From NCBI GenBank assembly GCA_965226555.1, contig CBDDDG010000010.1, positions 416,001 through 480,000 of the forward strand: DNA of 64,000 bases, written 5' to 3'. Made by a program: the position numbers and the translations under genes. Under the pieces are notes generated by a model, which was given only the letters and a program-made list of their open reading frames with translations, made no database searches and was not told the DNA's origin. Source of the stretch: Salinispira sp. (GTDB lineage: Bacteria > Spirochaetota > Spirochaetia > DSM-27196 > Salinispiraceae). Shown piece after piece: positions 10,324 through 18,062 of the stretch (positions within the stretch are counted from its first letter, which is position 1; each line of letters starts with the position of its first letter).

Positions 10324-10390
10324 AATATCTCCTCAGAACCATGAACAGAAACGATTCCTCGCACAGCAGCGTAATTCTTGGATTTGTCAT
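10316..10390 (-). pseudogene. Possible truncated partner gene of the AAA ATPase (24-aa remnant)
   Basis: ATGA overlap with the ATPase stop; MTNPRITLLCEE resembles the hydrophobic-strand-CE start of TOPRIM-like ATPase partners. Confidence 0.4.
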
Positions 10391-11523
10391 GGAAGCATTT
10401 CCAGAGACCACAGTTTGGATATGGTCAGTTCGCTGTCATTGCGTACATCTTGTTGTCTGGTATAACTGGAAGGATCTCGGTCAAGCCATACCATGTTTTT
10501 AAGAGATATGGAATCCATTGCTTCAGGGTGATGCGATATGACTATGGACTGAGGCAGCTCGCTACCGGCCGCATCTTCCAACTCAAGAAACAGAGGTTTT
10601 ATTTCCTGGAGCATGAGAAAATTATCGGGTTCATCGAGCAACAGTAATCGCTCATTACTGTCGCCAAAAACGATATTAAACAGGACAATAACAAAGTTTT
10701 GCATTGGAAAATTGTGCTTGCACAATTTCCATGAGCAAAACTTTCTATAAAATAGGAGAATACTAAGCACAAAGAAAGCATTCCAGATCGGAAACTTTTG
10801 CTTTATGCAAAAGTTTCTAATTATGATTTGCCCGATCGATAGTTGATCACAATGAAATAAGAATGAGAATTCTTCATTTTTTTCTGAGCGAAATGAGGCT
10901 TTTAATTCACGATATTTTTCCCCGCCTGTTCCATGAAAATGAAGACCATTATACCCGGGAAGAATTTCTTGAATTCTTGTATCAACTTTTTCGTTTATAT
11001 TCTGGTAATTTGCAAGGAGGTTATTTCTATACCACGACGCAAAATTTTCTGCATGAGAATGTAAAAAAACAGATTCAGAAATGGAGCTGGGCACTATCTG
11101 CCATGGATCAGGACTGAGCGCAACTATTCCCTGCACCCACTTCCGAAAGAGTAAAAGAGATCTGTTGAATTCTTCTTTAAACTCCAAGGTAAAACCTGAA
11201 ATAGTCCAATTAAAGGGAAATGTGGGACCTTCCCTATATTCATGATTAGGTGTTTCTTCGGAAAACATATGCGCCTCGCCCATTTCTATTTTCAATATGG
11301 GCCGATCATTCAAAAGAAGTTCTTCCTTTTTTACGCGCGCTTTTTCAGTGCCGCGCTCATGTTCAATAATGAGCTTATACACATACCGAAATTCTTCAGC
11401 ATCATCTAACACTTCCAGTTCAAATGTTTGATCGCTGTGAGTCATGAACTTACTCATACATTTGTAGTTATCAATGTGAATTCGCCGTAACAAAAGGCGA
11501 GGCTTATCCGACTGCGCTACCAT
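10387..11523 (-). pseudogene. AAA_15/AAA_21-type ATPase with no Walker A and an in-frame repeat insertion
   Basis: RRIHIDNYK start, LSIGQ signature, LLLLDEPDN Walker B, ISHHP; no GxxGxGK(S/T); 43 extra codons at 10692-10820. Confidence 0.75.
10692..10817. mobile_element. 126-bp family P element with TAA duplication, in frame in the ATPase
   Basis: TAA at 10689-10691 and 10818-10820; shares modules with 14241-14370. Confidence 0.85.
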
Positions 11524-11539
11524 AGAGAAAAACATATCA

Positions 11540-11682
11540 TAAAGTTTTGCAAAATGCAAAAGTTTCTATTACAAAGTTTTGCCTGTGGCAAAACTTTCTA
11601 TACCTTGAGAGAATCAAGAATAGAGATGAGAGAATCCTCATTGGAAAATTTTGCAAAGCAAAAGTTTCTATTACAAAGTTTT
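11540..11682. mobile_element. Stacked family P elements (27 bp plus 97 bp)
   Basis: TATTA at 11567-11571 and 11669-11673 flanks 11572-11668; shares the CTATACCxTGAGAGAATCAAGAATAGAGATGAGAGAATCCTCATT spacer with 14427-14553. Confidence 0.8.
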
Positions 11683-13027: not shown

Positions 13028-13248
13028 AATTGGGATGGGAGAGACACGGATACAATAACCGATATCTGATTGTCTTCAGACAGGGTTATTCAATCTATTT
13101 TATGGTGTTTGATGTGAAATGCAGGACTGCATTCACGTGTACATCAAATGAGAAAGTTTTGTAATTATTTTTGTTATTTTGAGATAGTGACCTGATCCCG
13201 CAGCATGGGTGAGCCGGATGCGTGGTCGAGCAGGCCGAGCAACGCCAA

Positions 13249-13488
13249 TTAATGCGATCCGTTCCGCACTGTCCGCATTTCCTCATCGCTCAGCCCGGTA
13301 ATTCTCTGAACAGCCTCTGTCGACAACCCTTCCAAAAACATACTGCGGGCGTTTTTTCTCCGCTCCTCAATATGCCCCTCCGCGCGACCTTTCAGAATAC
13401 CTTTCTCCATACCCTGTTCAAGTCCCTCAATCCGGCCCTTCGCAATGCCTTCCCTGACAAAGGCGTTGGTTATGTTATATGTCCGCAT
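13249..13488 (-). CDS. Predicted small intragenic product (RpnS-like antitoxin), 79 aa, intact
   Basis: GGAGGAG-AAAACAGT-ATG internal start; EGxxxG repeats and HTH-like tail. Confidence 0.6.
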   Translation of the reverse strand: MRTYNITNAFVREGIAKGRIEGLEQGMEKGILKGRAEGHIEERRKNARSMFLEGLSTEAVQRITGLSDEEMRTVRNGSH

Positions 13489-13561
13489 ACTGTTTTCTCC
13501 TCCAGGGAACAGTTCCCTGTTAATTTTCTCAAACTGTTCATACAGTCCCAGATCTTTTATA

Positions 13562-13762
13562 CCGAAAATTGTGCTCCGCACAATTTTCTAATCTGGATTC
13601 TCTCATCTCTATTCGTGATTCTCTCAAGATATAGAAAGTTTTGCCTTGGAAAATTGTGCTCTGCACAATTTTTCAATGAGGATTCTCTCATCTATACTCT
13701 TGATTCTCTCACGGTATAGAAAGTTTTGCCTCAGGCAAAACTTTGTTGTGGCAAAACTTTGG
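13562..13762. mobile_element. Family P insertion 1 in Rpn copy 1 (201 bp, TA duplication)
   Basis: Absent from the paralog; two tandem hairpin-spacer units plus terminal hairpins. Confidence 0.9.
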
Positions 13763-13860
13763 TATAACCCAGCACACTTTCTGCCAGATCAGTAAAGTCT
13801 TGTGAAGACAGACCGTTCAGGAGCTGCGCAATCTCTTTCAGCCCCTCAGCATCCATCTCA

Positions 13861-13960
13861 CTGAAAATTGTGCTCTGCACAATTTTCAAATGAGGATTCT
13901 CTCATCTATACTCTTGATTCTCTCACGGTATAGAAAGTTTTTCCTAAAGGAAAAACTTTG
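13861..13960. mobile_element. Family P insertion 2 (100 bp, TCA duplication)
   Basis: Absent from the paralog; TCA at 13858-13860 and 13961-13963. Confidence 0.9.
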
Positions 13961-14240
13961 TCATTATCTCGCATTATATACCACAACGCAGTTGATGTAT
14001 ATCGGTTTCCATCGGAGCGCAATGCCAACTGCTTCTTTGTCATTCTCCTCAGATCGCGCACAATGTACGACACTTTCACCTTGACATCTACCGTGCCTTC
14101 GATCATGGATTCGGAAGCAGCATTTCCATGAGAACTGTAAAATGTGAGGGGGAGGTTCCATTCCTTTTTTCCATGGTAGAGCAGCAGTATATAGATAGCA
14201 TCATTTTCATTGTACACATTGCTGTTTCTGAGGGCATGCT

Positions 14241-14370
14241 ACAGAAACTTTTGCATTGGAAAATTGTGCAAGCACAATTTCCAGTAGCAAAAGTTTCAAA
14301 TTCGGAATGCTTTCTTTGTGCTTAGCATTCTCCTATTTCATAGAAAGTTTTGCCTGTGGCAAAACTTTGT
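14241..14370. mobile_element. Family P insertion 3 (130 bp, 0-1 bp duplication)
   Basis: Paralog reads CATGCT-GATA contiguously at this point. Confidence 0.9.
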
Positions 14371-14426
14371 GATAATTATCAATCTGTGTGAGAGCATGTT
14401 TATTCAGGTAGCTTTTATGCTCAATA

Positions 14427-14553
14427 CAAAAGTTTTGCTACTGGAAATTGTGCTTGCACAATTTTCCAAGGCAAAACTTTCTATACCGTGAGAGAATCAA
14501 GAATAGAGATGAGAGAATCCTCATTTGAAAATTTTGCGGAGCAAAATTTTCAG
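14427..14553. mobile_element. Family P insertion 4 (127 bp, TA duplication, opposite orientation to 1 and 2)
   Basis: Absent from the paralog; lies just before the EHK catalytic motif codons. Confidence 0.9.
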
Positions 14554-15079
14554 TAATGAATAGAGCCTTCCGCTTGGGGTCTGACAGGAAGGGGGCGCTG
14601 ACAACGAGATCGCAGAGAAGGTTCTTTTTTCCCGCAATGTAGCTGGGGGTTTCAATGCGGATTTTGCCCAGATCCAGCTTGGCAAGCGTTGTATCCTCAC
14701 AGAACAGCCGCAGCAGGTCGAGAATCATCCGGGGGGTTCTGTAGTAGGCGATCTTGAAGGCTATGTCGTGGATGTGGCCTGTGCTGTGGGATGATTTTTT
14801 CATACATTTTCCTCCTACATCTGTGACGGGTAAAATGTCATTCTCGACTATGTATTTTGAAAGAATGTTGTGATTTTTTTCGGGGAGTCGGGAATGGGGG
14901 CTGGTATGCTCTGAGTCGATACTCTCCACGATCCCCGGAACAATGCTCCGCGCGAGGTTTTTGTTGAAGTATGAATATATGAAGTCCCAGAATATCTGAG
15001 CATTCCTGAAGGAACTGGTATGTGAGGTTGATCTGGATGTTGATGTTATCCGCTCTGCGCGCAGGCCGAGCAGCGATAA

Positions 15080-16093
15080 TTAATGCGATCCGTTCCGCAC
15101 TGTCCGCATTTCCTCATCGCTCAGCCCGGTAACATCCTGAATGTCATGAGCTAAAAATCCTTTGGAAAACATACTGCGAGCGTTTTTTCTCCGCTCCTTA
15201 ATATGCCCCTCAGCGCGACCTGCCTGAAGTCCTTCCTGTCGGCCCTTTGTGATACCCTGCTCAAGACCTTCAACACGGCCTTTCAGAATACCCTTCTCCA
15301 TACCTTCCCTGACGAAGGCGTTGGTTATGTTATATGTCCGCATACTGTTTTCTCCTCCAGGGAACAGTTCCCTGTCAATTTTCTCAAACTGTTCATACAG
15401 TCCCAAATCTTTTAGATAGCCTAGCACACTCTCTGCCAGATCAGTAAAGTCTTGTGATGACAGACCGTTCAGGAGCTGCGCAATTTCTTTCAGCCCCTCA
15501 GTGTCCATTTCATTATCTCGCATTATATACCATAACGCAGTCGATGTATATCGTTTTCCATCGAAACGCCATGCCAACTGCTCCTTTTTCATTCTACAAA
15601 GATCGCGCACAATGTACGACACTCTCGCCCTGACATCTACCGTGCCTTCAGTCATAGATTCGGAAGCTGGATTTCCATGCGAACTGTAAAATGTGAGTGG
15701 GAGGTTCCATTCCTTTTTTCCATGGTAGAGCAGCAGTATATAGATAGCATCATTTTCATTGTACACATTGCTGTTTCTGAGGGCATGCTGATAGTTATCA
15801 ATCTGTGTGAGAGCATGTTTATGCTGGTAGCTTTTGTGTTCAATAATGAATAGGGATTTCCGCTCGGGGTCTGACAGGAAGGGGGCGCTGACAACGAGAT
15901 CGCAGTGAAGGTTCTTTTTTCCTGCAATGTAGCTGGGGGTTTCAATGCGGATTTTGTCCATGTCCAGCTTGGCAAGCGTTGTATCCTCACAGAACAGGCG
16001 CAGCAGGTCGGGAATCAGCCGGGGGGTTCTGTAGTAGGCGATCTTGAAGGCTATGTCGTGGATGTGGCCTGTGCTGTGGGATGATTTTTTCAT
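15080..16093 (-). CDS. Rpn/YhgA-like recombination-promoting nuclease / putative transposase, copy 2 (intact, 337 aa)
   Basis: HDIAFK, CDLVV, IIEHKS, LLYHGKKEW; AGGAGG RBS before MKKSSH; internal RBS and ATG at 15343. Confidence 0.88.
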   Translation of the reverse strand: MKKSSHSTGHIHDIAFKIAYYRTPRLIPDLLRLFCEDTTLAKLDMDKIRIETPSYIAGKKNLHCDLVVSAPFLSDPERKSLFIIEHKSYQHKHALTQIDNYQHALRNSNVYNENDAIYILLLYHGKKEWNLPLTFYSSHGNPASESMTEGTVDVRARVSYIVRDLCRMKKEQLAWRFDGKRYTSTALWYIMRDNEMDTEGLKEIAQLLNGLSSQDFTDLAESVLGYLKDLGLYEQFEKIDRELFPGGENSMRTYNITNAFVREGMEKGILKGRVEGLEQGITKGRQEGLQAGRAEGHIKERRKNARSMFSKGFLAHDIQDVTGLSDEEMRTVRNGSH

Positions 16094-16314
16094 ACATTTT
16101 CCTCCTACATCTGTGACGGGTAAAATGTCATTTTTGACTATGTTTTTTGAAAGAATGTTGTGATTTTTTTCGGGGAGTCGGGAATGGGGGCTGGTATGCT
16201 CTGTGTTGATATACTTTTTGCTCATACTATATAGACGGGTAAAATATGAACGGTGAATATGAAAAATTTTTGTAATTATTTTTATTATTTTGAGATATTA
16301 CTATTGACCTGATC

Positions 16315-16410
16315 CGGACGCATAGGAGAGCAGGAGGCGCAAACCTCCGACCAGCCCCCGTCTCAGCAACAGTCGCATGGGCGAGCAGGCGCGGAGCGCG
16401 CCGACCAGCC
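16315..16410. repeat. GC-rich REP-like repeat (family G), two degenerate units
   Basis: CGCATGGGCGAGCAGGCGCG..GCGCCGACCAGCC matches 58794-58910. Confidence 0.7.
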
Positions 16411-16444
16411 TAGGAGACTCCGCTGCCGACCAGCCGTCTTATCG

Positions 16445-16529: not shown

Positions 16530-18062
16530 CTAATACCATGACGGCACCAGACTACCTGTCACGCCGGAACCACCAAACACATTTTGTTTGCTTCCGGTAT
16601 ATTTGCCATTGGCATCAAGCGTCCAATGATCCTTCCACTCCTCAAGATTCTGATTGAATGCGAGTGCGATACGGAACATCTCGTCCATATTCGTTACCGA
16701 ACTGACATCCCAGCCGGAGATATCGCCATTGAACACACTTATTCCATAGAACATATAGCCCATATTCATTACCGAACTGACATCCCATCTTGAGACATCG
16801 CCATTGAATGCGTTTGTAGCACGGAACATTTCGTACATATTCGCTACCGAACTGACATCCCAGCCGGAGATATCGCCATTGAATGCGGTCTTACTCTTGA
16901 AAACAGTGGACATATCCGTTACCGCAGTGGTAATAATGTAGTTGAAATTGCCAGTATTTCCCCATGTTGATATCCCGTCAGTTACCGCTGTTTTCAGTAG
17001 AGCGTTAGTTGTTGGACTCACGGTAACATATAAATACTCGGCAAAGACTATGTCTCCGCTTCCGGTTTCACCATATACCACATATGTTCCTGCCGTTGTA
17101 CTCGCGGTAACCGTAACAATTCCGGTAGTCGTATCAACTGTCGGAATGGTGACCGTTCCGGGCGGAGTTGCGGGGGTTACCTTCAGGTCTCCTCCTTCAA
17201 TCGTGAGAGTGCCCGGTTCTACCGTGGTCAAAGAAACACTGAGGTTCTCATTGGCAATAATGGCAGTAACAATGGCATTGAAGGCATACGAAAGGGTAAT
17301 AGTCACTTCCTCCCCAGGAGTCTGTGTCACAGAATCTGTTGGTGTTTTCATTGCGATTTCCGACCAGTCGCCAGCGCCAACTGCATTGACGGCGCGTGTC
17401 TGTACTTGGTAGATGGCGCCGTTTATCAGGTCGCTAATGACGTGGCTTGTACTTGTACCGTCAATGCCTTCGGTAATAATTTCCCAGCTTCCGCTACCGT
17501 CTTCCCTATGGCGCAGGTGGTATGCGGTAATTTCGCTGCCGCCGTTATCGGTTGGCACAGTCCATGTGGCAACGAGCTGCTCAGGGCCCGCATAAAGGGT
17601 TGGAGTAGCCATTGTACCCGGCGCAGCGGGGGGCACCACAGTTGGTGGCGCAATAGGTGTTGCAGTGGAAGACGCTGACCAGCCACCGGTGCCCTGCGCG
17701 TTGACGGCGCGCACCTGCACAGCATAATTGACGCCGTTTGTTAGTCCGGTAATGGTATGACTTGCGCCGGTAATACCGGAGGTAATTTCCGTCCAGTTCT
17801 CGCTGCCGACTTCACCATAGCGCAGATTGTACGCGGTAATATCGTTTCCTGCGTTGTTCTCCCCCCAATTCCATGTAGTCGGATCGATCCACGATGCAGT
17901 AAGCTGTTCGCTCCCTTCTATGAGAGTTGGAGCATACATGGCAGGCGGCGCAGTCAGCATGGGGCATGCAGCGACGAGCACTGTCAGGATGACGATAAAA
18001 CCGCTCAGCACATAGGCGCTGACAGGCTTCTTGTTTTTTCGGTTAATGCGTAAAATTTGCAT
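16530..18062 (-). CDS. Surface lipoprotein with two fibronectin type III domains and C-terminal BspA/DUF285-type repeats
   Basis: Lipobox LVAAC; two FN3 units (W..ITAY..Y.VQVRAVN..G.G.WS); 25-aa repeats FNGDISGWDVSSVxNMxxMF; GGAGGT RBS. Confidence 0.85.
   Translation of the reverse strand: MQILRINRKNKKPVSAYVLSGFIVILTVLVAACPMLTAPPAMYAPTLIEGSEQLTASWIDPTTWNWGENNAGNDITAYNLRYGEVGSENWTEITSGITGASHTITGLTNGVNYAVQVRAVNAQGTGGWSASSTATPIAPPTVVPPAAPGTMATPTLYAGPEQLVATWTVPTDNGGSEITAYHLRHREDGSGSWEIITEGIDGTSTSHVISDLINGAIYQVQTRAVNAVGAGDWSEIAMKTPTDSVTQTPGEEVTITLSYAFNAIVTAIIANENLSVSLTTVEPGTLTIEGGDLKVTPATPPGTVTIPTVDTTTGIVTVTASTTAGTYVVYGETGSGDIVFAEYLYVTVSPTTNALLKTAVTDGISTWGNTGNFNYIITTAVTDMSTVFKSKTAFNGDISGWDVSSVANMYEMFRATNAFNGDVSRWDVSSVMNMGYMFYGISVFNGDISGWDVSSVTNMDEMFRIALAFNQNLEEWKDHWTLDANGKYTGSKQNVFGGSGVTGSLVPSWY

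Follow-up and report, generated by a model that had tools for sequence, protein, structure and literature searches.

The window, a 64,000-nt stretch of DNA, carries two adjacent rpn genes on its minus strand, one interrupted by four hairpin inserts (classed below as MITEs) and one uninterrupted. The interrupted gene belongs to subfamily F2, whose members carry inserts at sites designated A to E. Coordinates refer to the window unless preceded by a contig of the genome assembly analysed here (G000).

13249..14803, minus strand (G000:C10:429249-430803): interrupted rpn gene, subfamily F2; 329 codons open without the four inserts
14428..14551, minus strand: MITE at site A; 124-nt core, net 129 bp; sense to rpn; 13/63 paralogs filled
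14244..14369, plus strand: MITE at site B; 126-nt core, net 130 bp; 5/63 paralogs filled
13973..14001, minus strand: internal promoter-like TATACA-17-TATAAT, predicted RpnS promoter; -35 in 63/63 copies, -10 in 56/63
13863..13960, plus strand: MITE at site C; 98-nt core, net 103 bp; flanks TCACT/TCATT; 18/63 paralogs filled
13564..13761, plus strand: composite (double) MITE at site D; 198-nt core, net 203 bp; 5/63 filled
13497..13503, minus strand: GGAGGAG RBS-like site; site E, empty here and filled in 13/63, lies at its 5' edge
13249..13488, minus strand: predicted RpnS-like ORF of 79 aa with four-residue repeats
15080..16093, minus strand: uninterrupted paralog, 337 aa, with an 87-aa RpnS

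Global alignment with the paralog at 15080-16093 reproduced the four net insertions of 203, 103, 130 and 129 bp given in an earlier note on this DNA, and confined the length difference to two 12-nt gaps in the C-terminal repeats; upstream of the repeats the identity of the exon blocks is 91-95%. Once the inserts are omitted, the frame is indeed open for 329 codons plus a stop and retains D13, D65 (within CDLVV) and E85-H-K87. One insert (14428-14551) lies immediately before the catalytic EHK, as had been noticed, one codon ahead of E85; it is in frame but holds one TAG, and the other three shift the frame. The internal GGAGGAG-N8-ATG at 13488 and its 79-aa ORF are both present in the sequence, and the adjacent paralog is free of inserts, again as first described. 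The description of the inserts as palindromic holds for three of them and for the first unit of the fourth, which form strong hairpins (z -3.9 to -8.3). At site D the other four filled paralogs carry a single MITE unit, not a double one, and the site C MITE lies ∼10 nt downstream of the internal -10-like box. The neighbour differs from the interrupted copy at 49 positions in 750 nt and is not its closest relative, which is a copy on a different contig (94.5%).

Assignment of the gene to the Rpn family is confirmed by the intact paralog, which scores 37.5 bits against PF04754 (Transposase_31; cut-off 21). The same protein scores 28.8 against NCBIfam TIGR01784, below the 52.1 needed, and therefore represents a divergent subfamily. 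The genome contains 140 PF04754 matches, compared with 0-4 in seven relatives of the same family. F2 comprises 63 near-full copies, 62 obtained from chained BLAST hits and one merged by hand, shorter fragments being excluded. Within F2, D13 is conserved in 62/62 copies, D65 in 55/62 and E85 in 61/61, and K87 and Q97 stand at the spacing of RpnA Q84 and R94 (mapped by spacing). PMC5350276 gives D11, D63, E82, Q84 and R94 as the PD-(D/E)XK residues of RpnA and reports RpnA-Q84K to be inactive; because F2 proteins carry EHKS, their nuclease activity is not assured.

No solved structure was found for any relative, and two homologues are labelled Salinispira sp. in the database. DNA of the 13249-14803 locus was absent from 30 relatives (one 31-bp chance match only), a search for the orthologous locus through the neighbouring glycosyltransferase found only relatives at 34-36%, and the GTDB genomes yielded one distant rpn locus. 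The idea that rpn units are composite transposons bounded by MITEs was discarded, as the flanks of 13 copies show no constant ends.

Several other features of the region were recorded. The spacer between the two rpn copies (14850-15060) resembles, by eye, a decayed 5' part of an F5-like rpn gene. A GC-rich second repeat family (GCGAGCAGGC-type) occurs in the window at 13200-13250 and 16310-16440, and after rpn stop codons at many loci. At 10692-10817 a 126-nt MITE of the same family as the inserts lies in frame and stop-free inside a 390-aa ORF (10387-11559, minus strand) that has no Pfam or NCBIfam match. Fibronectin-III/DUF285 (121 ORFs), ankyrin-like and other repeat proteins are greatly expanded, both at 16530-18062 and genome-wide, and at least eight IS families are present. 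Repeat-protein expansions and many IS families are typical of a host-associated bacterium.

The MITE family and its likely mobiliser

The four inserts match 493 merged loci amounting to 43 kb (BLAST against the 2.98-Mb genome), and 370/493 have the end word on both sides. The elements are short, with inverted ends, many copies and no transposase ORF. Among the 370 two-ended loci, a perfect flanking repeat of 5 bp was found in 84, of 4 bp in two and of 6 bp in one, shifted controls giving 0-5; duplications of 2 or 3 bp were rejected since these counts favour 5 bp. Comparison with empty paralogous sites implied a 5-bp duplication in 48/68 flank pairs and a 4-bp duplication in 11, variants of one site being counted separately. 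The MITE family makes fixed-length 5-bp target duplications.

An IS5-family element of 1,340 bp, with a 338-aa transposase, is present in the genome (NF033581 228.7 bits, cut-off 140). Its ends, GAAACCTTTGC, are 10/11 identical to those of the MITEs, GAAACTTTTGC; 5-bp repeats flank five of its six uninterrupted full copies, and its targets are similar to those of the MITEs, A/T-rich and TA-ending. The genome, a 26-contig assembly that is 93.5% complete with 6.7% contamination, holds 0 matches to PF01797 (Y1_Tnp) and 0 to PF13358, and an HUH/REP and an IS630 mobiliser, respectively, were rejected on these counts. Because of the 5-bp duplications, the matching IS5 ends and the lack of a Y1 or IS630 transposase, the hairpin inserts were classed as MITEs, likely IS5-mobilised. 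Mobilisation in trans by the resident IS5 transposase is likely as judged from similarity of ends and targets; another IS5-type element also produces 5-bp repeats.

MITEs resident in rpn genes differ at their junctions from those elsewhere. A perfect 5-bp repeat flanks 1/89 of the MITEs inside rpn genes versus 31/70 elsewhere, and at the four sites of 13249-14803 the target duplications have decayed to 2-4 matching bases of 5. Because the duplications at rpn sites have decayed, these MITEs are probably no longer mobilisable. A C stands two bases ahead of the left end in 85/89 rpn-resident MITEs (16/17 independent sites) versus 13/70 elsewhere; the left junction is usually AC-N-GAAA, whatever the empty target carries, and one possible reading of this class is an element with AC..GT ends and no duplication. 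Plain decay does not account for this change. A junction change that closes the stem across the insert base was considered and is unsupported (10 sites stronger, 6 weaker). The C at -2 could be the mark of elements locked against excision.

Related observations were made elsewhere in the genome. Three copies of the second IS5-type element, ∼1.5 kb long, carry the same MITE at the same site (G000:C26:9485, C10:540010 and C10:480602) and further copies are empty there, a shared-allele pattern in another multicopy family. Derivatives (∼225 bp) of the right end of the 1,340-bp IS5 lie at G000:C2:84360-84578, C1:328979-329196, C1:218509-218741 and C23:24484-24699, and some such derivatives adjoin hairpin MITEs, upstream of genes. 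The MITE pattern was present in 0/40 related genomes searched. No sbcD match was found in the genome, which is incomplete; absence of sbcD from the assembly may explain the tolerance of hundreds of long hairpins.

Shared insert alleles in a mosaic gene family

Thirty of the 63 F2 copies are interrupted by inserts, which are confined to five sites and occur in 14 combinations, with 13, 5, 18, 5 and 13 copies filled at A, B, C, D and E, respectively. The copy at 13249-14803 is ABCD and the copy at C13:6003 is ABDE. The nearest relative of a site's MITE occupies the same site in 18/18 cases at C, 13/13 at A, 10/11 at E, 4/5 at B and 3/4 at D, and the best unlabelled matches outside are fragments of the same sites. 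Since each site holds one MITE subtype in 5-18 paralogs, the inserts are shared alleles derived from five insertion events. These results contradict the earlier proposal that four independent hits on one locus had piled up faster than point mutations; moreover, the exons are overwritten by recombination and this copy has 0 private SNPs. At the per-site frequencies, the probability of a copy with at least four inserts among 63 is p=0.16 (two were seen against 0.17 expected, p=0.01 for two). The four-insert copy is therefore the tail of a family-wide distribution.

Other rpn subfamilies repeat this pattern, with 17 distinct full MITE sites overall (15/17 antisense) and large upstream inserts in 56/145 near-full rpn genes. 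In F2, inserts are concentrated in already broken copies (33 clean versus 24 expected, p=5e-5), as expected from inactivation with a subset of copies kept intact; shared ancestry could contribute. In each of F1, F2, F4 and F5, a MITE site that is filled recurrently lies 14-40 nt ahead of the RpnS start. Site A of F2 and site 240 of F4 occupy the homologous position before IEHK and hold the same MITE subtype, in proteins that are ∼43% alike.

When the inserts are left out, 27/30 interrupted and 29/33 uninterrupted F2 copies have no premature stop; the remaining three interrupted copies have lost large segments, in one case without a frameshift. Computed pairwise on the first 250 codons, dN/dS is 0.25 between intact copies and 0.24 between interrupted copies, and even the private changes of interrupted copies include fewer replacements than expected (22 N/15 S, p=0.009). 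The ratio between the interrupted copy and its neighbour, suggested earlier as a check for pseudogene decay, is 0.29; it cannot decide for the branch of the interrupted copy because that branch has no private substitutions. The copy can be tiled by exact matches to many different paralogs. In F2 as a whole, SNP-SNP r2 falls from 0.36 at 1-2 nt to 0.19 at 4-6 nt, 0.05 at 13-25 nt and 0.03-0.04 farther, with non-independent pairs here and in the other pair-based linkage statistics, whose p-values overstate; trees of the two gene halves have 5/55 splits in common. IS copies in the same genome recombine too, with slower linkage decay, and ectopic recombination is therefore genome-wide and not rpn-specific. 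Loss of mismatch repair as the source of the mosaic was rejected, mutS and mutL being present with open frames. Conversion tracts in the Salmonella tuf genes are mostly contiguous and are shortened by mismatch repair, according to PMC5485169. Many rounds of conversion among 60 donors would yield the observed F2 mosaic, and the interrupted copy is likely intact because recombination among paralogs keeps overwriting its coding blocks.

The state of an insert is largely unlinked to the bases beside it. At 4-12 nt, insert-SNP r2 in F2 is 0.012 (n=14) compared with 0.155 (n=240) for SNP-SNP pairs, and the values in F1 are 0.017 (n=4) and 0.216 (n=142); a residual insert-flank link is weak at C (p=0.04) and D (p=0.05) and absent at A, B and E. 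Among pairs identical for 60 nt on each side, an insert differs in 5/38 and a SNP in 15/574. C13:6003 and C16:41029 have the same sequence throughout nt 1-504 but not the same state at sites A and B, and C10:500715 and C10:502489, tandem siblings with 98.4% identity, have different states at C and E. Junction bases of the filled type occur in 2/48 empty alleles at A, 7/44 at C and 4/49 at E. On the simplest reading, conversion tracts would end at the heterology or bypass a looped-out hairpin; precise loss or gain of inserts could give the same unlinked picture, the direction of change being unpolarised.

Taken together, we consider it likely that the rpn copy at 13249-14803 was disrupted by four MITEs shared with its paralogs and that its coding blocks are renewed by gene conversion among ∼60 copies. 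The resident 1,340-bp IS5-family transposase would have placed each MITE once, and ectopic recombination would then have spread it among paralogs. A conversion tract that halts at the looped-out hairpin, or crosses it, would replace the exon and leave the insert in place, and occasionally the insert itself may be copied in or lost during conversion. The locus would thereby be able to pass between broken and intact states, and broken copies could donate sequence. The earlier idea of removable inserts is right in that inserts can apparently come and go without harm to the gene, but nothing shows the change between broken and intact as regulated or specific to 13249-14803. The gene behaves like a MITE-inactivated member of a concertedly evolving family, and a dedicated locus-specific switch is not supported.

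Alternative readings

An unlikely alternative to renewal by conversion is active and frequent ON/OFF switching of the Rpn repertoire at the DNA level, with broken copies serving as silent cassettes. The IS5 transposase or hairpin slippage would excise a MITE, with an empty paralog as template for repair of the gap, or the MITE would be copied in from a filled paralog. The more frequent difference of inserts than of SNPs within long identical tracts, the tandem siblings that differ by two inserts, the filled-type junction bases in empty alleles and the paucity of replacements among private changes of interrupted copies are all consistent with switching, as are repertoires that vary between assemblies and hairpin loops and inner arms that occur in both orientations among MITE copies at the same site. 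Slow neutral conversion with tracts ending at the insert, however, predicts all the same; in addition, the decayed duplications suggest that the rpn-site MITEs can no longer be mobilised, and the recombination of IS copies indicates a process that is not rpn-specific. One public-run junction skips insert A, on a contig too short to separate an empty allele of this locus from that of a paralog.

The earlier note had also proposed that the locus is kept as an antitoxin donor, such that nuclease halves may die and RpnS is retained by selection to neutralise other copies; we regard this as improbable. E. coli RpnS is described in PMC10400941 as having an internal start of translation and an internal transcription start and as blocking its cognate RpnL only, equal repeat number being needed; stand-alone rpnS genes exist in E. 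coli (PMC10400941) and speak for the proposal. Tails of at least 63 aa are open in 136/138 located cases (7/145 were unlocated) while more than a third of near-full genes bear the large upstream inserts counted above, and every one of the 17 full MITE sites that count as independent precedes the internal start. One 31-bp MITE fragment truncates a tail, and the expected share of insertion targets within the tail is 18-25%; the family-wide sparing signal is therefore modest, and 1/18 sites does not differ significantly from that expectation (about p=0.04-0.14, by hand). For the copy at 13249-14803 itself, the 0/4 inserts in the tail give p=0.33.

The tail is, moreover, common to the subfamilies and also refreshed by conversion, and three of the five F2 sites (C, D and E) lie in the predicted RpnS leader. 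Here inserts C and D would place 301 nt of hairpins in that leader, between the promoter-like site and the RpnS start; a scan for TATACA-17-TATAAT found 8 sites versus 5.3 expected, a weak match on its own with hexamers that are also coding-constrained. Tail lengths vary in 4-aa steps across the rpn family. The 79-aa RpnS differs in repeat number and tail from the 87-aa RpnS of the neighbour, and no intact F2 copy has an identical RpnS (best intact match 87%, 71 aa). The sparing of tails may alternatively arise because selection would immediately remove an insertion that, by disrupting the tail of an intact gene, left its nuclease without an antitoxin.

It is very improbable that the mosaic and the insert combinations are an assembly or polishing artefact of a 140-copy family. 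Only 0.66 of sampled words occur in the best public run, and no public-run contig spans the locus, the contigs being too short to confirm the four-insert haplotype. Against an artefact, ten proteins from contigs outside G000 show the same residue alphabet in new combinations (0-7 unseen residues each, 90-95% to the best G000 copy), and four proteins outside G000 continue from rpn into MITE sequence, or the reverse, at sites C and E, which argues against an origin in one assembly. The unique flank has a depth tens of times lower than the sum over the gene, and zero-difference junction-spanning contigs exist (13559-13644).

Removal or skipping of the hairpins at the RNA level, which would leave a functional gene, fits the putative catalytic residues and purifying dN/dS kept in interrupted copies and the strong secondary structure of the inserts, but it is scarcely credible given that inserts cluster in already broken copies, that the MITEs lie in both orientations with most sites antisense, and that only 22 of 214 elements outside rpn zones give a frame of at least 70 aa on both sides once removed, these 22 being, by eye, intergenic positions, frames on the opposite strand, fragments of rpn or transposase genes and a single in-frame case, with no split housekeeping gene among the 214.

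Relation to known systems and implications

REP/REPIN and PATE elements are moved by HUH (Y1) enzymes, occur as hairpin doublets and singlets, and are species-restricted and abundant between genes; IS200/IS605 derivatives insert without target duplication. The MITE family resembles REP/REPIN and PATE elements in its hairpin doublets and singlets, species restriction and abundance between genes, but differs in its 5-bp duplications and IS5-like ends and in that Y1_Tnp has no match in the genome. Silent-cassette gene conversion systems, in which silent donors pass sequence one way to a single expression locus, are exemplified by Borrelia vlsE and Neisseria pilE/pilS. The rpn family is like these systems in its short-patch paralog mosaics and in having inactive but intact copies that appear to donate sequence. 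It differs in having no single expression locus, with 29/63 F2 copies being intact genes, in encoding a cytoplasmic nuclease silenced by MITE alleles, and in that neither directionality nor a dedicated cis signal is evident.

With the RpnL-RpnS proteins (Rpn/YhgA-like), as described in PMC10400941 and PMC5350276, the family shares PF04754, acidic residues at the spacing of the catalytic acids of RpnA, an internal RBS-ATG and short tail ORF with four-residue repeats, an internal promoter-like site, tandem arrays and the lack of defined ends. It departs from them in its 140 matches in one 3-Mb genome, against a high example of 26 copies in PMC10400941, in EHKS where RpnA has EHQS (PMC5350276), and in the interruption of half of F2 by MITEs; fine mosaicism extends over the whole gene and is not a change of repeat number alone. 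The definition of MITEs was taken from PMC3852290, and like the elements moved in trans by IS transposases in that source, the inserts lack an ORF, are 54-230 bp long, resemble a resident IS at their ends, duplicate a fixed length of target and occur in hundreds of copies. Unlike those elements, they have two or three internal hairpins in place of one long terminal stem, with loops that flip, and the rpn-resident copies have remodelled junctions and would have spread by recombination rather than by new transposition. No report of MITE insertion polymorphism or gene conversion in rpn families was found in the literature searched.

A broken bacterial gene can thus appear perfectly preserved without hidden function, as recombination with paralogs renews the sequence around a stuck insert. 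The analysis also brings to light a very large Rpn expansion in which two peculiarities can be measured: inserts that are unlinked to nearby bases and a uniform junction change in rpn-resident MITEs. A broader reading, which we offer as speculative, is that the 140 copies form an Rpn nuclease-antitoxin repertoire diversified by short-patch conversion, in which transposase-resistant MITEs would be portable alleles that turn a copy ON or OFF and come and go precisely, with no shift of neighbouring bases, silenced copies would be an intact archive, and Rpn cuts would possibly drive the recombination. If copies toggle within populations, this would be cassette-like diversification of an anti-phage nuclease family, and it would offer a natural setting in which to ask if Rpn proteins stimulate recombination of the genes that encode them.
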